A DNA stretch of 20,000 nt from an uncultured virus (IMG/VR IMGVR_UViG_3300024265_000044) (taxonomy: Duplodnaviria > Heunggongvirae > Uroviricota > Caudoviricetes): IMG/VR virus record IMGVR_UViG_3300024265_000044. One strand, written 5' to 3'. Under the pieces are notes generated by a model. The model was not told the DNA's origin and did not search any database. It saw nothing but the letters and a program-made list of their open reading frames with translations. The translations under genes were made by a program, and so were the position numbers. This document shows, in pieces, positions 1 through 14,283 of the stretch (position 1 is the stretch's first letter; each line of letters begins with the position of its first letter).

Positions 1-2
1 GC

Positions 3-236
3 GAGCGAGCTCAACTCCACCGAGCTCGTCACCTCGCCAAGAAGCGCGGCGAGAACATTGCCCCGCTCGACCGGCGCTCCACGTTGCGTGAGCGGAGCGA
101 GAGCGAGCGAGCCGACTTGCGGATCGAGGTCCTCGTTGAGGTCGAGCGCGCTTGGCTCGACTCGAAGAGCTCCGGCGACTTCACGATTTGGCTCAGTCGG
201 CAGATCATCAAAGGCAAGAAGGACACCGCGGCATGA
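3..236 (+). CDS. Hypothetical protein, 5' truncated by window edge
   Basis: Frame 3 is open from the window start (ERAQLHRARHLAKKRG...KKDTAA) to TGA 234-236, which overlaps the next ATG at 233. Confidence 0.7.
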   Translation, partial: ERAQLHRARHLAKKRGENIAPLDRRSTLRERSESERADLRIEVLVEVERAWLDSKSSGDFTIWLSRQIIKGKKDTAA

Positions 237-463
237 TGACCAGTGAACGAACGCGCATTACGCGCGCGCTCAAAGTCCTCACTCGGCTCAACGAGGTCAG
301 GGGGCAACCGGACGAAGTCCGCGCGACTCTGTTCGTCGAGGAAGCCGCGCTGGAGGATGAGCTCGACAACATCGACGGTGAAGGTCGGTTCAACCGCAAG
401 GATACGGAGTGGTATGTGCGCGGCCGACCGGGTCCTATGCAACCCGGAGAGCGGAAGCGGTGA
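233..463 (+). CDS. Hypothetical phage protein
   Basis: ATGA overlap upstream, GTGA overlap downstream; MMTSERTRITRALKVL... Confidence 0.7.
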   Translation: MMTSERTRITRALKVLTRLNEVRGQPDEVRATLFVEEAALEDELDNIDGEGRFNRKDTEWYVRGRPGPMQPGERKR

Positions 464-687
464 GCAAGCAACCGACAACCGCGACGAGCTCGCCGATCGA
501 GACCTCGTGGAAAGTTATCCTCAAGTGTCCGAATTGTGACGTCCGGATCGGGCCGATCGCGGACGTCACAACGCAACGGCATGATGATGCGCTCAAGGCT
601 GCGGAAGCCAAGACCGGGATCCCTCGCGAGTGGCTTGAGGTTGTGGCCTACGACGTCGGCGCGCTCGGGCCAACGGTGAAGGCGTGA
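460..687 (+). CDS. Hypothetical protein with CxxC
   Basis: GTG 460 overlaps the upstream TGA; LKCPNCDV; coupled to the next gene. Confidence 0.65.
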   Translation: MSKQPTTATSSPIETSWKVILKCPNCDVRIGPIADVTTQRHDDALKAAEAKTGIPREWLEVVAYDVGALGPTVKA

Positions 688-1121
688 GCAATTACATCGA
701 TCTGACCGGCGCGCGGGTCGGACGCCTCAGGGTATTCGGTCGCGATTTCAGTCGAGGAGCGACGGGCCATGTTCGTTGGCTTGCTCGATGTGAATGCGGT
801 GAGATCGTGAGTCGCGAGGGGCGGCACCTTCGATGCGCGATCGAGAACGATTGGAATTCGGCTTGCCGCAAGTGCCAGAGCATTGGACGGCGCGGGCCCG
901 GTTTCTGTTGCAACGAGTGCGGCCAGAGTGGCCACAACCGAAGCACTTGCCCGATCCTCGCGGGAGTCGTCTCGCGGTTCTGTGGGACATGCGCCGGCCT
1001 CGCACATCGGCGGCCAAGGAATCGCGTTTGCGACTGTGGCGAGGAGTATTACCCGGACCGCGTGCGGTGGTCGCGAGTGTTGGAGCTCCCACGAGATGAC
1101 CGGACGGTGAACCCGGCATGA
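684..1121 (+). CDS. Cys-rich Zn-binding protein: HNH-associated N-terminal module plus CCHC zinc knuckle
   Basis: IDLTGARVGRLRV...WLARCECG module; CNECGQSGHNRSTC = C-x2-C-x4-H-x4-C; further CxxC/CxC; no HNH catalytic motif seen. Confidence 0.75.
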   Translation: MSNYIDLTGARVGRLRVFGRDFSRGATGHVRWLARCECGEIVSREGRHLRCAIENDWNSACRKCQSIGRRGPGFCCNECGQSGHNRSTCPILAGVVSRFCGTCAGLAHRRPRNRVCDCGEEYYPDRVRWSRVLELPRDDRTVNPA

Positions 1122-1363
1122 GCGTTTACATCGTCACCGACGAGCACGGGATCCGACTCAGGATCCCGCATCCATACGATGAGCGCGCGGTTGCGACGCA
1201 TTTGCTCGGGATCGGGCCTGAGCTCGCTCGTTCGCTCACCGTTGTCGAGGTCCTCGAAACGATCAGACACGACCCGGCGCGCTTCTTTTGGCTCGGCGAT
1301 GACCGCGGGCCTCTCGAGACCATCCGCGACGCGTACAACGAGACGAAAGGGCCGAAGCGTTGA
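1118..1363 (+). CDS. Hypothetical phage protein
   Basis: ATGA/TTGA coupled on both sides. Confidence 0.7.
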   Translation: MSVYIVTDEHGIRLRIPHPYDERAVATHLLGIGPELARSLTVVEVLETIRHDPARFFWLGDDRGPLETIRDAYNETKGPKR

Positions 1364-1587
1364 CAACTTGGTGCATCGACTGTGAGCTCAATCTCGGCGC
1401 GGTGATCCGTCCGGACGGCTCGCAAGCGTCGGCATGCAACGAGGCCGACGCCGAGGACGTCGCGCGCGCCTTCGAGGATGACGAGGACGATGGCCTCGGT
1501 GACACCGAGTGGCTCGCCAGGTTTAAGGCATGCCGCGCAGCGGTGCCCGTTGAGCTCGACATGTTCGATCGGCCGGTGCGGCGATGA
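1360..1587 (+). CDS. Hypothetical acidic protein
   Basis: TTG start overlapping the upstream TGA; acidic stretch EDDEDDG; ATGA-coupled downstream. Confidence 0.65.
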   Translation: MTTWCIDCELNLGAVIRPDGSQASACNEADAEDVARAFEDDEDDGLGDTEWLARFKACRAAVPVELDMFDRPVRR

Positions 1588-1826
1588 GCGTCGTTATCAT
1601 CCAGAGCGTCGTTGTGATGCATCCACTCGTCGAAGGCGGCGACCCGATGCATTTCGAGGTCAAGCAGCCCGAGGCCATGTGGTTTTGGGTTGGCTTGTTC
1701 CGAATGCCACTCAAGGACGCTTGCGCCGTCATTCACCGGCGCGACAACCTCGACGAGTGCAACCGCATTGCCAAGGCCGCATGCGCGAGGGCTTACGGCG
1801 AGCCGCCGCCGTTGGTGGAGTTATGA
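1584..1826 (+). CDS. Hypothetical phage protein
   Basis: ATGA overlaps at both ends. Confidence 0.65.
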   Translation: MSVVIIQSVVVMHPLVEGGDPMHFEVKQPEAMWFWVGLFRMPLKDACAVIHRRDNLDECNRIAKAACARAYGEPPPLVEL

Positions 1827-2521
1827 GATTGCGCGACGTGGAAGTGAGTCGGCATATCTTCGAGAAGCATCGTCTCGTATACGACGCGCGCGCGGTCCTC
1901 ATCGATAGACGCGAGCCAGTCGTCTGGATCTCGGTCGCGTTTTCGACTGTTACACGAGCGGCAAGCGGGGACGATGTTCCACGGCGTCGTTGTTCCGCCC
2001 TTGGAGACCGGTACGATGTGATCCCAACTTTCGGCCGGGTTGCCGCAATAAGCACACTCGCCGTCGAAATAATCAAGCAACACCTCACGCGCCTCCAGAG
2101 GCACGGCATCGACGCCACGACGGCGTTTGCTCACTTGGTTTTTCCGATAGTGTCTAAAAGCGGCGTCGTTTGCATAGCGGCGTCGCTCGTCGGCGTTGCG
2201 ATGAACCTTGCACCGACCATTGCGGATCGCATTCGTCGGGAACCATCGAGCACAATCACAGCACCACGATTCGCCAACGCTCGCGCGCACGCGTCGTTCT
2301 CGGTTTGTCGGTCGGCCGTCAGACACTTGGTCGCGACATTCGATGCAGGCCGATGCTCGACCGTCGCCGCGACTTTTATCGCGTCCGAAGGCGTCGCGCT
2401 GTTTCCACTCCCGACATCGGTTGCACCATTTCTCACCGGACAGAATCTTGGACGCATAAGCGGCCGGATTAAGTCCGAGCCGATGCGCGGCAACTTTCAT
2501 CGCTCCATGTCGACTTCCCAT
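1793..2521 (-). CDS. HNH endonuclease with N-terminal Zn-finger repeats
   Basis: CAYCG...WDHIVPVSKGGTTTPWNIVPACRSCNSRK is a classic HNH motif; N-terminal KWCNRCREWK...DGRASACIEC; the only credible minus-strand gene in the window. Confidence 0.9.
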   Translation of the reverse strand: MGSRHGAMKVAAHRLGLNPAAYASKILSGEKWCNRCREWKQRDAFGRDKSRGDGRASACIECRDQVSDGRPTNRERRVRASVGESWCCDCARWFPTNAIRNGRCKVHRNADERRRYANDAAFRHYRKNQVSKRRRGVDAVPLEAREVLLDYFDGECAYCGNPAESWDHIVPVSKGGTTTPWNIVPACRSCNSRKRDRDPDDWLASIDEDRARVVYETMLLEDMPTHFHVAQSHNSTNGGGSP

Positions 2522-2539
2522 GCGGAGGCTTCAGAATGA
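1823..2539 (+). CDS. Antisense 'bridge' ORF overlapping the HNH gene (may be translated, product may be non-functional)
   Basis: ATG 1823 overlaps the upstream TGA 1824-1826, and its TGA 2537-2539 overlaps the DUF5131 ATG 2536; codon-in-register antisense to the HNH; no recognisable motif. Confidence 0.45.
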   Translation: MRLRDVEVSRHIFEKHRLVYDARAVLIDRREPVVWISVAFSTVTRAASGDDVPRRRCSALGDRYDVIPTFGRVAAISTLAVEIIKQHLTRLQRHGIDATTAFAHLVFPIVSKSGVVCIAASLVGVAMNLAPTIADRIRREPSSTITAPRFANARAHASFSVCRSAVRHLVATFDAGRCSTVAATFIASEGVALFPLPTSVAPFLTGQNLGRISGRIKSEPMRGNFHRSMSTSHAEASE

Positions 2540-3588
2540 CGAAGATCGAATGGGCGCGCAACAAGGACGGCTCGGCGGGCAAGACGTGGAACCCCGTCGG
2601 CGGTTGCTCGCGGGTCTCGCCCGGTTGCGATCACTGTTACGCGATGCGCTTCGAGCATCGATTCAGTGGACCGGGGCAACGCTCGGAAGGGCTCACGATC
2701 CGCCGCGACAAGAGCGCGCGGCGGCCTGGCGTTGATTGGTCGGGCGTCGTGAGGTTCCTACCTGAGCGGCTCAAGGTGCCGATGCGCGTCAACAAGCCGA
2801 CAACTTGGTTTGTCAACAGCACCTCGGATATGTTTCACGAGAGGTTGACCAACGCCGAGATCGCCGCGGTGTTCGGTGTGATGGCGGCTTGTCCTCAACA
2901 CACCTTTCAAGTTCTCACCAAGCGCGCGCGACGGATGCGGGAATGGTTCGAGGGCGCCGAGGAGCATGGCGGGGCTTACGACCTATGCCGGTACGACATT
3001 CCGAACGCGCTTTTGACCTGTGCATGGGAGGCGTGTACCTCATTAGCCGGCGACGACCGCCCCGATTGGACGATGCCAACGGCGGAAGTGTTTGGCGACG
3101 CTTGGCCGCTTCCCAACGTTTGGCTCGGCGTCTCGGCCGAGGATCAACAGCGCGCGGACGAGCGGATCCCTGAGCTCATGCGGACACCGGCGGCGGTGAG
3201 GTTCGTTAGCGCGGAGCCATTGCTAAGCGGGATCGACTTGTCTCCATACATGGTCGAGTGCGACGCGTGCGATCGGGAAGGCGCTACCGCGGGCGGGACC
3301 GTTACCCCGCTCGAGTATCATACCCACGGCAGAGCAAAGCTCGATTGGGTCATCACCGGCGGTGAGTCGGGCAACGGCGCGCGGGTGTGTCACCTCGAAT
3401 GGATCCACGACATCGTGACGGATTGCGCGCGCGGCGGTGTCGCGTGCTTCGTCAAGCAAGTCGGCGCCCATCCAACAACGCGCGACATGGCGCTTGATAT
3501 GGCTCCACCTTGGAAGAGCTCTGACAAGAAGGGCGGCACACCAAGCCTATGGGCGGAACCACTTCGAGTGCGGGAGATGCCGCGGTGA
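2536..3588 (+). CDS. DUF5131 / phage Gp37-Gp68 family protein (radical-SAM-like three-Cys motif)
   Basis: TKIEW...TWNPVGGCSRVSPGCDHCYA, FVNSTSDMFHE, HTFQVLTKR, NVWLGVSAEDQ, RFVSAEPLL, DWVITGGESG, FVKQVG; SD GGAGG at 2524-2528. Confidence 0.93.
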   Translation: MTKIEWARNKDGSAGKTWNPVGGCSRVSPGCDHCYAMRFEHRFSGPGQRSEGLTIRRDKSARRPGVDWSGVVRFLPERLKVPMRVNKPTTWFVNSTSDMFHERLTNAEIAAVFGVMAACPQHTFQVLTKRARRMREWFEGAEEHGGAYDLCRYDIPNALLTCAWEACTSLAGDDRPDWTMPTAEVFGDAWPLPNVWLGVSAEDQQRADERIPELMRTPAAVRFVSAEPLLSGIDLSPYMVECDACDREGATAGGTVTPLEYHTHGRAKLDWVITGGESGNGARVCHLEWIHDIVTDCARGGVACFVKQVGAHPTTRDMALDMAPPWKSSDKKGGTPSLWAEPLRVREMPR

Positions 3589-3824
3589 CCGGAGCCATTT
3601 CACATCGCAAGCGACGGGAATTGCGCGAGCTCGAAACGCGACTCGATAAGCCGTCGCCGTTCGTTCCGACATCGATGCGACGCAAAGCACTACCGACGGG
3701 CGAGGCAAAGTTGCGCGGCGACATCTTGCGCGAGGTCCAAGCCGAATTCATGCGGCGGCCGATGCGGATCTTTGGCGAGTGGCTCAAGACCGAGCTCGCC
3801 GCGCTTGGACGGACTCACGAATGA
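3585..3824 (+). CDS. Hypothetical basic protein
   Basis: GTGA overlap with the DUF5131 stop; ATGA overlap downstream. Confidence 0.65.
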   Translation: MTGAISHRKRRELRELETRLDKPSPFVPTSMRRKALPTGEAKLRGDILREVQAEFMRRPMRIFGEWLKTELAALGRTHE

Positions 3825-4027
3825 GGGAATGTGTTTGCATCCTCGAAGCGCGGACGTTCAACCGCGCCGAGCCTCGGCCGTGTTGGGTGTGCGGTCGTGG
3901 CCGCGATGACCGGCAACCCACCGAGGCACACCGACAAGACTTTTTCGACTTTCACATTCGACACAACAACCAAGCCACGGCGAGGGAGAAAGCCAATGGA
4001 CTGCAACAGCGAAGGAATCGCACTTAA
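3821..4027 (+). CDS. Hypothetical small Cys-containing protein
   Basis: ATGA-coupled start; CVC...CWVC. Confidence 0.55.
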   Translation: MRECVCILEARTFNRAEPRPCWVCGRGRDDRQPTEAHRQDFFDFHIRHNNQATAREKANGLQQRRNRT

Positions 4028-4889
4028 CCGGGTGGAGCTCGTCGCGCTCCTCTCATTCACATCAGTCGAGAAGTCGAGCCGCGACTACTATGGCGCGGCG
4101 TTCACCGTCGAGGGCGATCGGTGTTACGCGCGCGCGACCGATGGCAAGAAGGCCGTCGAGGCCGACGGGACAAGCGACAAGAAGTTTGCCAAGGGCGGCA
4201 AGCGCGAATGGTTCGTGTATCGCGACTTTTTGATCGCGTGCCGCAAGCTCATTACCGGCAACCAAGTCGCGCGCCTGATCTTTAACGGTGCAAGCCTCCA
4301 TGAGGCAAAGTTCGAAGGCGTCGGCGACGACGATGACGGCGACATTTCGACGCTCACAACCCGCAAGGACGCGGCGAACGCACAAGCGAACATCCCCGCC
4401 ATCGCGAAGCAAACGAAGCTACCCTCGACGACACGCGACGTCGCGCGATGTGTGACGCTCGCCGGCCCGTACCTGGCGACGCTCAACAAGGTCGCCAAGG
4501 CCGCGGCAACCGAGGCGATCGATTGCTACCCGCCAAAGGATAAGGATACCGCTGCGGTGTTCCGAATCGGGGACGGCAAAGAGACGCAATGGACCGTCGC
4601 GATCATGCCGGTCAAGAGTGTCGCCTCTCACGAGGCGTCCGCCTCGACGAAGCGCAACAAGAAGAGCGCGGCGGCGCGCCAACAAGGCCTTTACGACGGC
4701 CAAGGCAAGGAGCTCGACCCCAAGACCGGCAAACCACTCGAAGCCACGGACACCAAGGGCAAGGGCAACGTGAGCAACATCGCCGACGCGCGCAAGAAGA
4801 AATCCGGCAAGAAGGCGCCGGCCAAGAAGGCCGCCAAGAAGCCACGCAAGAAGGCGCGACCGCGCAAGAAGGCGCCAGGCAAGAAGTGA
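3996..4889 (+). CDS. Beta sliding clamp (DnaN domain II-III)-like protein with Lys/Ala-rich histone-H1-like tail
   Basis: SD GAGGGAG before ATG 3996; SRDYYGAAF...ARATDGKKAV resembles DnaN R..LnGv...vATDGHRL; PYLATL...WTVAIMPVK resembles the DnaN C-terminus YL.d....yvvMPmr; tail KKAPAKKAAKKPRKK. Confidence 0.65.
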   Translation: MDCNSEGIALNRVELVALLSFTSVEKSSRDYYGAAFTVEGDRCYARATDGKKAVEADGTSDKKFAKGGKREWFVYRDFLIACRKLITGNQVARLIFNGASLHEAKFEGVGDDDDGDISTLTTRKDAANAQANIPAIAKQTKLPSTTRDVARCVTLAGPYLATLNKVAKAAATEAIDCYPPKDKDTAAVFRIGDGKETQWTVAIMPVKSVASHEASASTKRNKKSAAARQQGLYDGQGKELDPKTGKPLEATDTKGKGNVSNIADARKKKSGKKAPAKKAAKKPRKKARPRKKAPGKK

Positions 4890-5032
4890 GCACGCGCCCC
4901 ACCGCGATCCTCGTCCGCTTGCCGCTTCCACTTTTGAAGCGCGTCAAGAAAGCCGCGGGCGATCAAACCCTGAGCGTCGCGGCTTGGGTGCGAACGGCGA
5001 TTTTAGCGGCTCTCAAAGAGGCAGGCGCATGA
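4886..5032 (+). CDS. Ribbon-helix-helix (CopG/Arc-like) DNA-binding protein
   Basis: 48 aa; AILVRLPLPLLKRVKKAAGDQTLSVAAWVRTAILAAL fits the strand-helix-helix pattern; GTGA/ATGA coupled. Confidence 0.75.
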   Translation: MSTRPTAILVRLPLPLLKRVKKAAGDQTLSVAAWVRTAILAALKEAGA

Positions 5033-5310
5033 TCGGCAAACCAGTCAGCGCGACCCTGTGGGGCGTCGCGTACCGTTTTCGCAACTTCGATCCGCCGCTT
5101 GTGACACTCACCGCGGGTGAGGCGCCTGAGCACATCGAGGGCACTTGCAACGTGCTCACCGCGGATCCGACCGGTTGCGACTTGCTCGACGTCACCGCGC
5201 GCGAGGTGCTCGGCCCCAAGCTCAAAGCAGATCACGAGTTTACGTTGACTCACGTCCATCGCGTTTTCGACGTCAACGGCTTGGCCTCGGTGAAAGGTGG
5301 CGATGACTAA
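5029..5310 (+). CDS. Hypothetical phage protein
   Basis: ATGA-coupled; MIGKPVSATLWG... Confidence 0.65.
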   Translation: MIGKPVSATLWGVAYRFRNFDPPLVTLTAGEAPEHIEGTCNVLTADPTGCDLLDVTAREVLGPKLKADHEFTLTHVHRVFDVNGLASVKGGDD

Positions 5311-5560
5311 GCGAGCTCGACCGTTTTGGTCTTTGGTGAAGTGTCCGCGCCGCGGTCGCAACACCATCGCGCTTCGCGCCGACCTTCCGAAGCACGTCGA
5401 GCTCGCATTCGCGCGCAAGTGGCACAAGTTGGTTTGTAGGAGATGCGGGGCGGTCCGTCGCGGCGTCGTTGCATACCGCACCGGCCGATCGAAACGGTCG
5501 CAACTCTTCCTCGAAGTGATGGACCGCGTGTGGATGGACGAGCACGGAGCATGCACATGA
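5303..5560 (+). CDS. Hypothetical basic protein with CxxC
   Basis: SD-like AAGGTGG before ATG 5303; LVCRRCG. Confidence 0.6.
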   Translation: MTKRARPFWSLVKCPRRGRNTIALRADLPKHVELAFARKWHKLVCRRCGAVRRGVVAYRTGRSKRSQLFLEVMDRVWMDEHGACT

Positions 5561-5829
5561 TTTTTCTCGTCGAGCTACGGAATGAGCCCGGGAGTCTATG
5601 TCGCTTTCTGGGATGCCTCGTCAGCGTGAATCTTGTGGGCTTAACGTCTTGCCCGGTGCATGGCCATGTGGGGACGATGTTCTTTCTGTTCGAGGCGGAG
5701 TCGGAATCACCCGACGTAGAGAGAACGGTGGAGCAGCACACGATACAGTCCCGACGTCTGCCCGAGTGGCCACCAGACTTCTATACCAGCGGCTACCTCG
5801 TGCCGATGGCTCCGAAGGGCTCTTCGTAA
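5557..5829 (+). CDS. Stand-alone ACT-like domain protein (PheA/aromatic hydroxylase regulatory type)
   Basis: IFLVELRNEPGSLCRFLGCL..VNLVGLTSCP...FFLFEAE resembles the PheA ACT consensus f.l.n.PGaL...L..f....iNLt.ieSRP....y.Ffid.eg; SD GGAG and ATGA overlap. Confidence 0.55.
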   Translation: MIFLVELRNEPGSLCRFLGCLVSVNLVGLTSCPVHGHVGTMFFLFEAESESPDVERTVEQHTIQSRRLPEWPPDFYTSGYLVPMAPKGSS

Positions 5830-6017
5830 TGAATCGTTCAGAAGAACAAGCGGCTCAAGTGCCGATCTACTGGGAGGTGGGTTCATTTCCGCCAGATTAC
5901 ATTCTGGATAAGCCTGTCGGGTGTGGGCATTGCCACCTCACGTCACGGATGGCGTACGTCGACATAGATGGTTTCATCTTCTGTTCGATGAGGTGTCTCC
6001 ACTGGGGGCGCCGATGA
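5829..6017 (+). CDS. Small Zn-finger-like protein
   Basis: TAATG overlap; CGHC...FCSMRC (TRASH/MYM-like pattern). Confidence 0.6.
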   Translation: MNRSEEQAAQVPIYWEVGSFPPDYILDKPVGCGHCHLTSRMAYVDIDGFIFCSMRCLHWGRR

Positions 6018-6029
6018 ATCGTTCAGAAG
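5829..6029 (+). repeat. 16-bp direct repeat ATGAATCGTTCAGAAG at the starts of two adjacent genes
   Basis: Exact copies at 5829-5844 and 6014-6029. Confidence 0.9.
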
Positions 6030-6634
6030 TCGTAGGCACCACTTTTGGACTCTGGGTGGTCGTTGAACACATCAGCGGTCGGCATGTGCGCGCGCGTTGC
6101 GCCTGCGGTGTGGTTAAGATCGTGCGTTTGGATACTTTGAAGTTTGGGCAAAGTCGCTCTTGTGGATGTTCGAAAGTCACAGGCCATTGGCAATCGTGCA
6201 TCGTATGTGGCGCGCCTGTTTGGATAACTGGCAGAAGGAAGAAACTGAATTCAAGGTTCTGCTCTCTTTCGTGCTCGGTGAAGGATCAACACCGAAAACG
6301 CATTGAGGCTGAACCGGTTGGCGCACGGTTTGCTCGATTCGTTCGTCTGAATGGTGAGTGTTGGGAATGGAGTGGCGCGGTCAACCTCCAAGGCTACGGA
6401 ACATTCATGCGAGACGGGCGAGTCGCGGGACCGCGCGCTTCTGAATTGGCGCATCGTGTTTCATGGACGTTGATCAACGGGCCGATACCGGATGGATTGT
6501 TCGTCTGTCACAAGTGCGACAATCCACCGTGTGTGCGACCAGATCACCTTTTTCTTGGTACACCGGCCGCCAACAACCGAGACAGGTGCAAAAAGGGTCG
6601 TTGCCGTCATCCTGGTCATCAGAGGGCGTTGTGA
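6014..6634 (+). CDS. HNH homing endonuclease (HNH_3 type) with N-terminal Zn modules
   Basis: ECWEWSGA..GYG...AHRVSWTLINGPIPDGLFVCHKCDNPPCVRPDHLFLGTPAANNRD; N-terminal GTTFGLWVV..RCACG..SRSCGC and CIVC..FCSLSC. Confidence 0.93.
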   Translation: MNRSEVVGTTFGLWVVVEHISGRHVRARCACGVVKIVRLDTLKFGQSRSCGCSKVTGHWQSCIVCGAPVWITGRRKKLNSRFCSLSCSVKDQHRKRIEAEPVGARFARFVRLNGECWEWSGAVNLQGYGTFMRDGRVAGPRASELAHRVSWTLINGPIPDGLFVCHKCDNPPCVRPDHLFLGTPAANNRDRCKKGRCRHPGHQRAL

Positions 6635-13060: not shown

Positions 13061-13315
13061 ATGAGCAGGCTCATCGCGTCCGCATGGGATAGCTACAATC
13101 GGGAAGTGTTGCCGCCGACAGCCGGCGACATTCAGCGCATCGAATCCCGGCTTGCTTTCTATGCGGGCGCGGCGGCGCTATTCATCGGCCTCGTCAAGTC
13201 CGTCGGCAACGAGGACGAACCGAGCGCGGACGATCTCGCGATGTTGGACAGCGTCAAGACCGAGCTCCAAGAGTGGAAAGAGGAAGCGAAGCGCGCGGCG
13301 AGGGCGAGGCGATGA
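13061..13315 (+). CDS. Conserved phage hypothetical protein
   Basis: [11 protein letters not shown]...[21 protein letters not shown]. Confidence 0.78.
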
Positions 13316-14283
13316 GCAAGCGCAATCGGAACCTTTTCGAGATCGGCGACGAGGTTGGTGAGCTCACCGTCGAGGCGTTGAGCGAAAAGGATCCAACGAG
13401 GTATGGACGCTTTTGGGATTGCCGTTGCCAGTGCGGCGCGCCACAGGTACGCAGCTCGGTACAGCTCAACGGCGCTATCCGAGACAACACATCGCCGATG
13501 TGTCCTCGGTGTTTGAGCGAATGGCGTCGCGGCATGTCGCTCGAGCGCGACGCGCATCGCCGGAGCGGACTCGCCCGACATTTCGAGACGACGCGCTCAC
13601 TCTATGGCCATGGTTGGGACGAGCGATTTGAGAATGGATATCGAGCGGCGCTTTGCGCGGAGCTCGGTCCGATGGCCGCGCTCGATGAGCCGCGCGGTGA
13701 TGACGTCGAGCCATACAGCGCGCCAAGCACCGGCGGTATCAATTGGCCTGGCCTGTATCCGATGAGCGGTTTCGTTTGGAAGTGTGAGCAGTGCAAGAAA
13801 AAGCGATCGGTCGGTTGGGGTTGCGTCGATTGCATGACGTGGGCTTGTCGCGAGTGCGTGACGGCCGGCAACTGTTGCCGGTGTCTCAACAGGGAGGGGA
13901 CGCTCGAATTTATCGGCAAACACTTCGGCGTCACGCGCGAGCGCATGCGCCAGGTCGAGGCCAAAGCGCTGAGGAAAATGCAGAATCCCAAATGCACGCG
14001 ACTCCTTGCGCCGTTCGTAGAGTTAGACAACGCGGATCGCGTCACGGGCCGGTTCTCGTCGTCGCGCGCGCTGTATGAATACGCCGAGCTCGTTGGCTAC
14101 ACGCCGGCCGGTGCCATTCTCAACGCGATCCGCTTCAACGACCAAGGATGTTTGAAGTTGTTGCGCATGGCCGACAAGCTCACCGCACCGGCGCGGAGGG
14201 TGCTTGTTTTCAAGCTCATCCGAATGAACAGTCGAGAGCTCATCGAGCTATTCACCGAAACCGACAAATTGATCGCGGCCTGA
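13312..14283 (+). CDS. Zn-finger / sigma70 region 4 fusion protein (putative transcription regulator)
   Basis: [30 protein letters not shown] closely matches RpoD region 4.2 ([30 protein letters not shown]); N-terminal [13 protein letters not shown] module; CEQC..CVDC..CREC..CCRC cluster; no region 2. Confidence 0.82.

Follow-up and report, generated by a model that had tools for sequence, protein, structure and literature searches.

We suggest that an HNH endonuclease gene lying backward in a viral operon has been recoded so that the operon strand opposite to it stays open for translation. The gene lies in a 20,000-nucleotide (nt) stretch of an uncultured virus of the Caudoviricetes (IMG/VR record IMGVR_UViG_3300024265_000044), here called the window. 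In this stretch the HNH gene is located on the minus strand directly in front of a DUF5131 gene, and it is covered by a plus-strand open reading frame (ORF), here called the bridge, that begins in the stop of the preceding gene and ends in the start of the DUF5131 gene. In our best explanation, which we hold with a probability of roughly 0.7, the HNH gene is part of a cassette aimed at DUF5131 genes, and the operon-strand frame across the cassette is kept open for the sake of translation. The features on which the argument turns are the following, with GC3 denoting the GC content at third codon positions and lengths given in nt or amino acids (aa).

1584..1826, plus strand: upstream operon gene, 80 aa, GC3 0.80, without a family match; its TGA at 1824-1826 overlaps the ATG of the bridge
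1793..2521, minus strand: HNH endonuclease gene, 242 aa, Pfam PF01844 and HNH_5
1823..2539, plus strand: bridge ORF, 238 codons plus stop, from ATGA at 1823 to ATGA at 2536, codon-aligned antisense to the HNH gene
1859..2521, minus strand: conserved HNH block, aligning to positions 1-221 of the family profile and containing no TTA, CTA or TCA codon
2524..2528, plus strand: Shine-Dalgarno-like GGAGG in the gap that separates the HNH and DUF5131 starts, 7 nt ahead of the DUF5131 ATG
2536..3588, plus strand: DUF5131 (Gp37/Gp68-type) gene, Pfam PF07505, host gene of the cassette; its ATG overlaps the TGA of the bridge

The evidence that carries this explanation comes from relatives of the HNH gene. 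Alignment-based scans of metagenome, genome and viral contigs yielded the DNA of 24 further family members (profile E<1e-40), while a scan of viral contigs with the single HNH protein gave no match. HNH protein similarity was the sole criterion for choosing the loci, so the state of the antisense frame did not influence the choice. In 23 of the 25 family loci, the window included, the HNH gene directly adjoins a DUF5131 gene, in one of two arrangements.

Backward loci (head to head), n=11: window, L018, L019, L098, L099, L100, L101, L104, L107, L109, L179
Forward loci (HNH then DUF5131), n=12: L020, L102, L105, L106, L108, L110-L113, L115, L178, L180

Within the HNH block we counted the codons that give stops in the codon-aligned opposite frame. 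A depletion of these codons (TTA, CTA and TCA) among HNH homologues had been proposed as a test of the bridge in a reading of the window made from its sequence only, and the outcome agrees with it: 10 of the 11 backward genes have none, while each of the 12 forward genes has 1-6 (Fisher P 9.6e-6 for zero versus non-zero by orientation). The lone backward locus with stop-making codons is L101, which has two. By contrast, the other two antisense frames of the backward loci contain 1-13 stops. Summed over loci, 2 of 2367 codons are stop-making in the backward HNH genes versus 40 of 2830 in the adjacent DUF5131 genes (P 5.7e-9), and the forward HNH genes have 38 in 2234. A GC-binned expectation derived from 167 other HNH ORFs is 54.8 such codons for the backward genes, where 2 are observed, and 34.9 for the forward genes, where 38 are observed. 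The GC content of the backward loci ranges from 0.39 to 0.71, and the stop-free ones include L018 (0.39), L109 (0.41) and L019 (0.46).

Openness also follows orientation within the family. A maximum-likelihood tree of the 25 HNH proteins has 4-5 changes of orientation, at least 2-3 of which are forced by well-supported branches, and three contrasts between sister groups can be drawn from it: backward L107 (no stop-making codon) against forward L108 (two), with support 100/95; backward L104 and L179 (none in either) against a forward clade of five loci (2-5), with support 89/86; and backward L098 (none) against forward L102 (six), with support 93/74. Family members share 40-50% of their protein residues, and their synonymous positions have largely become random; therefore, each stop-free gene has been maintained as such and not inherited by inertia. 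The bridge in this respect resembles a selected reverse ORF, since its openness is kept among diverged relatives beyond the expectation from codon usage.

In the window itself, the minus-strand HNH gene at 1793..2521 is a genuine gene, as had been supposed. It matches PF01844 with E 3.6e-11 and 43.5 bits (cut-off 21.4) and HNH_5 with 40.6 bits (cut-off 27.5), and a protein search returned about 35 full-length homologues with 33-53% identity. The catalytic and zinc-binding residues (C.YC ... DH ... N ... C..CN..K) are present (CAYCGNPAESWDHIVPVSKGGTTTPWNIVPACRSCNSRK) and their columns are invariant in the alignment of homologues. The protein begins with MGSRHG and this start is common to family members (MGSR.G), which confirms ATG 2521 as the start of the gene. 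At its 3′ end, the gene overlaps the upstream gene by 34 nt (1793-1826), and its last ~11 codons read antisense through the 3′ end of that gene. The DUF5131 protein aligns to PF07505 over residues 2-316 (E 3.8e-71, 239.9 bits, cut-off 28.9), and has a weak, sub-threshold similarity to rSAM_mob_pairA (29.8 bits, cut-off 355).

The plus-strand ORF over the HNH gene has the 238 codons ascribed to it and runs from ATG 1823, inside the upstream stop, to TGA 2537-2539, inside the DUF5131 start. There are zero stops over 1823-2536 in the codon-aligned reverse frame, and the HNH gene uses no TTA, CTA or TCA. The junction at ATGA 1823 is as described, but ATG 1823 is internal to a longer open frame that extends stop-to-stop from 1406, has its first ATG at 1478 and comprises 353 codons. 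The bridge is embedded in a run of plus-strand genes that occupies the first 3.8 kb and is joined by four-base NTGA overlaps: all ten junctions reported for it (233, 460, 684, 1118, 1360, 1584, 1823, 2536, 3585 and 3821) are found in the sequence, and four further ATGA overlaps are present downstream in the window (9973, 10347, 10697 and 11401).

The place of the HNH gene beside DUF5131 recurs across the family, which spans Actinomycetota, Pseudomonadota, Planctomycetota, Chloroflexota, Acidobacteriota, Gemmatimonadota, Bacillota and candidate phyla, and which is also carried by isolate genomes, for instance by Nocardioides (L107, backward) and Streptomyces (L108, forward). Only two of the 25 loci depart from the pairing with DUF5131, i.e. 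L114, in which the HNH gene is at a contig edge and which is nearly identical to L109, and L103. Forward HNH proteins open with a DUF5131-like leader (M..T.IEWTDAT...), and their stop is at -13 to +5 nt from the DUF5131 start in all 11 forward loci having such a start, with TGATG and ATGGCTGA among the junctions. This leader together with the position of the stop indicates that the cassette sits a few codons past the ‘IEWT’ motif of DUF5131 and carries a restored DUF5131 5′ end. Among 17 DUF5131 loci in viral contigs, 14 are without any family HNH ORF; in the remaining ones, the HNH gene is ~5 kb away (L012) or directly upstream (L001 and L007). In 14 of these 17 loci, no more than 5 nt separate the DUF5131 start from the stop of the upstream ORF, and the same spacing is found in 12 of the 15 DUF5131 loci without an HNH-like ORF upstream, with the same types of junction. 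For the window, a phage collection contained no close relative, the best matches covering at most 3% of the query and lying inside DUF5131, and the contigs of one DNA run, probably that of the source sample, contained no joint that skips the HNH gene. Judged by its placement, the HNH family consists of homing-type cassettes, which occupy the 5′ end of DUF5131 genes and may point either way, and we define it as a new target-specific HNH family aimed at that site. The endonuclease would presumably cut DUF5131 genes that are without the insert.

Three loci of the family deviate from this pattern or extend it. L103 (reverse complement, 2277-3604) has a backward HNH gene of the same family with a stop-free bridge, the leader MADGSLIEWTDLEL and an ATGGCTGA junction to the upstream gene; its bridge ends in ATGA at a 115-aa gene other than DUF5131, and there is no DUF5131 on this 7-kb locus. 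In L102 (4001-5217), the HNH protein has the N-terminus typical of backward copies, yet the gene lies forward of a DUF5131 remnant that is C-terminal and matches only profile positions 114-312; the six antisense-stop codons of L102 are as expected if the constraint lifts when there is no start to bridge to. At L098 (990-3950), the DUF5131 and HNH pair adjoins further ORFs with N-termini that look like those of Ffh/SRP54 and ribulose-phosphate epimerase, and the host gene of the cassette may thus also occur in ordinary chromosomal contexts.

Both ends of the open frame had been proposed to be tied to neighbouring starts and stops, and this applies to most relatives. In the 11 backward loci, the bridge ends at -10, -17, +16, -30, +11, -48, +5, +5, -5, +5 and +1 nt from the DUF5131 ATG, i.e. 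the bridge stop is within 17 nt of the DUF5131 start in nine of them. At the other end, six loci have a displaced DUF5131 leader as the first codons of the bridge (L018, MPTKIEWA; L019, MSNTSTIEWTDAT; L100, MATKIDW; L104, MADKTGIEWT; L179, MSTKTGIEWTDA; and L109, MSTKSSSEWT), and degenerate versions of the leader are present in L098, L107 and perhaps L099. The bridge start overlaps the upstream stop as ATGA in L179 and the window, as ATGGCTGA in L104 and as GTGGCTGA in L107, and it is 1 nt from this stop in L100, 2 nt in L109 and 8 nt in L019, the exception being L018, in which the upstream stop is ~50 nt before the leader ATG. In total, the bridge starts at the upstream stop or at most 8 nt away from it in seven of the eight loci in which the start can be placed. 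The idea that the element carries its own bridge needs to be revised accordingly: in most relatives, the bridge start does not come with the element but is that of the host DUF5131 gene, displaced together with its first 11-14 codons.

A similar arrangement is seen in L241 (2930-4198), in which an HNH gene of a different family (361 codons, GC 0.44) is also without a codon-aligned antisense stop. The ORF opposite to it has 422 codons and ends 13 nt inside the next gene on the same strand, which is followed by another co-directional gene. L241 is likely a further bridge case outside the DUF5131 family.

In the model that we favor, the cassette would insert a few codons past the conserved ‘IEWT’ and bring a restored DUF5131 start, and one operon-strand frame would stay open either way, from the old DUF5131 start (in the window, the ATG that overlaps the stop of the preceding gene) to the new one. 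In a forward cassette, this frame would be the HNH gene itself, and in a backward cassette it would be the codon-aligned antisense frame. The latter could stay open with the HNH protein unchanged, since all that has to be avoided is three codons that have synonyms, TTA, CTA and TCA. Ribosomes coming from the upstream gene would translate the 238-codon frame into a probably functionless product, terminate at ATGA 2536 and hand over to DUF5131. As a result, the operon messenger would never be untranslated over ~700 nt, and Rho-type polarity, decay and loss of coupling would be avoided. Avoidance of polarity is consistent with all of the observations, and we infer that the bridge is translated and thereby preserves downstream expression. 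We also lean, if less firmly, toward a more general statement: backward homing endonuclease genes in bacterial and phage operons may as a rule be “ambigrammatic by selection”, recoding themselves so that the opposite strand is translated into a throw-away polypeptide and the insert becomes invisible to transcription-translation coupling.

Several points weigh against this model or limit its reach. The GGAGG in front of DUF5131 is at ideal spacing, and comparable purine runs precede the DUF5131 start in the other 10 backward loci; DUF5131 translation, therefore, need not depend on coupling. In L101, the bridge has two stops while the HNH gene is intact, and the bridge is thus not indispensable everywhere. 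With these two observations taken together, the bridge is no absolute requirement. The bridge of the window has no recognisable DUF5131 leader. Its first 12 codons (MRLRDVEVSRHI) were considered as a decayed leader, but this candidate was dropped as unsupported; in the alignment, these codons oppose an HNH tail that is shared with the closest homologue, P0003. Between the start of the window bridge and the present DUF5131 start, the DNA identity is weak (~7 of 15 bases by eye). Moreover, for the window alone and for the GC-rich L099, L104 and L107 (P 0.15-0.19), openness by chance is not rare. Lastly, when 1.84 billion representative proteins were searched with the bridge protein, 59 matched (E<=1e-3, 143-287 aa, 54 of them with at least 200 aa), but these look-alikes came to light because their frames are open; they document spread and not frequency, since a frame must be open to be predicted as a protein. 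Their alignments extend over most of the bridge, 42 of the 59 have I[EQSGD]W within the first 22 residues, and the consensus of the alignment starts with xxxTxIEWTDxxL; one of them, P0156, appears to be the bridge of L104, as the first 45 residues match and both have 221 codons.

The purpose of translation could also be a different one. Translating ribosomes might shield the operon RNA from pairing with the HNH transcript or from RNase, in which case neither Rho polarity nor coupling would be the point. Selection for openness would be the same, coupling is possibly dispensable given DUF5131’s own Shine-Dalgarno-like run, and protection by ribosomes is what has been proposed for ambigrammatic narnaviruses in the relevant passages of PMC8316113. 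Shielding, however, does not require that the bridge ends near the DUF5131 start, as it does in all 11 backward loci, or that it starts at or within 8 nt of the upstream stop, as it does in 7 of 8. Moreover, a promoter scan of positions 1-6000 gave no promoter-like (sigma-70-like) site from which an HNH transcript might start, and there was no terminator-like site between 1 and 4185. We consider RNA shielding an unlikely basis for the open frame.

In our favored model, translation across the insert and not its product matters, and the conservation of the two strands bears on this point. The HNH frame is uninterrupted in each of the 11 backward loci and retains the C.YC...DH...N...CNS.K motif in all of them, as judged with a loose expression and by inspection of the motif region where the expression failed; intact HNH genes with a catalytic motif imply selection on both strands. 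Identity of third bases at conserved four-fold codons was compared in five pairs, and it is 0.40, 0.14, 0.34, 0.34 and 0.27 for the HNH genes and 0.57, 0.26, 0.41, 0.48 and 0.29 for the adjacent DUF5131 genes. Because identity in HNH is not above that in DUF5131 in any of the five pairs, the amino acid sequence of the bridge shows no conservation other than that imposed by the HNH protein. Forward relatives have the HNH gene itself in the place of the bridge. On this comparison, the conserved feature is a frame that runs uninterrupted between the old and the new DUF5131 start, and translation across the insert, rather than the protein, is likely the target of selection. A working bridge protein, e.g. 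a regulator or inhibitor of the HNH endonuclease encoded in a true antisense overlapping gene pair, would agree with the frame being open in 10 of 11 backward relatives and with the 59 predicted proteins elsewhere. We nevertheless regard such a protein as quite improbable: the bridge protein has no match in Pfam, PHROG or NCBIfam, the HNH synonymous sites are without extra conservation in 5 of 5 pairs, the N-terminus of the bridge is just the displaced DUF5131 leader, and the slot is occupied by HNH in forward relatives so that the open frame and not a product is conserved. AlphaFold2, run with a 45-sequence alignment, yielded no confident fold (mean predicted local distance difference test score, pLDDT, 54.9; predicted template modelling score, pTM, 0.22), a result that we count solely as weak evidence against a folded product.

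For the window alone, openness is mildly unusual. The probability that 242 codons lack any antisense stop is 0.042 when derived from the codon usage of the window (1.3% TTA, CTA and TCA together in 4384 codons), 0.061 from the Leu and Ser content of the HNH protein and 0.02 from other HNH ORFs with a GC content of 0.55-0.62 (0 of 29 stop-free, 1.76% per codon), and the two frame coincidences at the junctions contribute roughly another 1/9; with very many windows scanned, this is suggestive and not decisive. What speaks against chance are the relatives and not the window alone. That codon-aligned antisense frames are often open in GC-rich DNA (above a GC of 0.62, 10 of 38 other HNH ORFs have no such stop) and that the two ATGA ends are a coincidence is hardly credible as a full account, given that relatives at GC 0.39-0.46 are stop-free too (P 7e-5 each for L018 and L109, 0.008 for L019), that the deficit of stop-making codons is confined to backward genes and that openness follows orientation in at least three sister contrasts.

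Bacterial and phage operons are known to use four-base overlaps of start and stop (ATGA, GTGA) and translational coupling, and coupled ORFs ordinarily both encode working proteins. The operon described here resembles these in having NTGA overlaps throughout, with the same device at both ends of the bridge. It is unlike them in that one of the coupled ORFs appears to be a spacer whose sole task is translation. In the literature searched, we found no published account of an antisense homing endonuclease bridged by an open operon-strand frame, nor of DUF5131 with HNH; DUF5131 itself turned up in one paper, which deals with radical-SAM resources.

Three described systems come close in part. The ShiLan domain is an out-of-frame HNH insertion in an actinophage DNA methylase gene (Arsenault, Gosselin and Gogarten 2025, PMC11855218). 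Its HNH gene is described as occupying an alternative frame, which both starts (GTG) and stops (TAA) within the insertion. As far as the sections drawn on here describe it, this system shares with ours an HNH homing-type insertion in a phage gene, a host frame without a stop across the insert and overlapping ORFs; there, however, the host frame runs on in frame and the methylase carries the insert as extra residues. In our case, the HNH gene is on the opposite strand, a separate ORF ends at the restored start of the host gene, and both orientations occur at one site. None of the words reverse, antisense, complement and opposite is used in the ShiLan paper (PMC11855218).

Ambigrammatic narnaviruses have a reverse ORF over the gene for the RNA-dependent RNA polymerase (Retallack et al. 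2021, PMC8316113). According to the passages of that work considered here, the likeness extends to a selected, stop-free ORF on the opposite strand of nearly a whole gene, to a product without homology and to the authors’ proposal that translation itself is what matters. The viruses concerned have RNA genomes, infect eukaryotes and are present as both RNA strands. By contrast, the cassette described here is a DNA element in bacteria and phages, and its open frame is on the messenger of the host operon and tied to neighboring starts and stops. In T4-type phages, passages of a review (PMC2988022) describe free-standing homing endonuclease genes between or in phage genes that must fit the expression programme of their host. 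For instance, mobE overlaps the nrdA stop, suggesting translational coupling, and segD is antisense to its neighbours, with very low transcript levels only inferred. These passages mention no open operon-strand frame across an antisense endonuclease gene, and the T4 endonuclease genes they cover are mostly intergenic, whereas the cassette here lies inside the first codons of its host gene, with a duplicated leader.

If the general statement on backward homing endonuclease genes is true, it would describe a new class of accommodation between mobile DNA and its host and the first counterpart in DNA genomes of the ambigrammatic RNA viruses. With both orientations at one site, the DUF5131 cassette family amounts to a natural experiment, in which the far strand is stop-free only in backward cassettes; this holds in at least three sister contrasts and over a GC range of 39-71%. 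In bacteria and phages, a long antisense ORF is nearly always put down to noise, and the comparative evidence of selection is unusually clean here. The model suggests a simple and testable rule for how selfish nucleases spare host operons, and it would make the bridge a case in which translation itself, and not the protein, seems to be the selected trait. For annotation it carries a warning, as both strands of a locus can be “real” in different senses.

The window looks like a phage or prophage replication region, since it encodes RuvC, a DnaA-C-type HTH (helix-turn-helix) protein, an IstB-like ATPase, a sigma-like protein and a DNA methylase. The last of the ten NTGA junctions, ATGA at 3821, may not be a gene start because it opens an ORF of just 68 codons that overlaps a 352-codon ORF from GTG 3831 with a GC3 of 0.79; this longer ORF has a Lys/Ala-rich tail and is without a family match (region 3821-4889). 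Further downstream, 4890-5920 has no convincing plus-strand gene and contains the minus-strand ORF at 4963..5556 (197 aa), which, like the minus-strand ORF at 13159..13581, has no Pfam or PHROG family match.

Upstream of the HNH gene, the six small genes at 233-1826 contain a single TTA, CTA or TCA codon in 532 codons, a TTA before TGA 1824, and codon-aligned antisense frames are therefore open over much of 233-1826 too. One of these genes, at 684-1121 on the plus strand, encodes a 145-aa Cys-rich protein with a weak zinc-knuckle match, without a match to the HNH catalytic motif and with a partial match to PHROG 374 (‘HNH endonuclease’) at profile positions 191-238 of 617. A second HNH gene, unrelated to the cassette, is located in forward orientation at 5921-6634 on the plus strand (HNH_3, PF13392, E 3.6e-14). 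With a GC3 of 0.53 versus 0.7-0.8 in its neighbours, and with three TCA codons, it is probably another mobile endonuclease gene.

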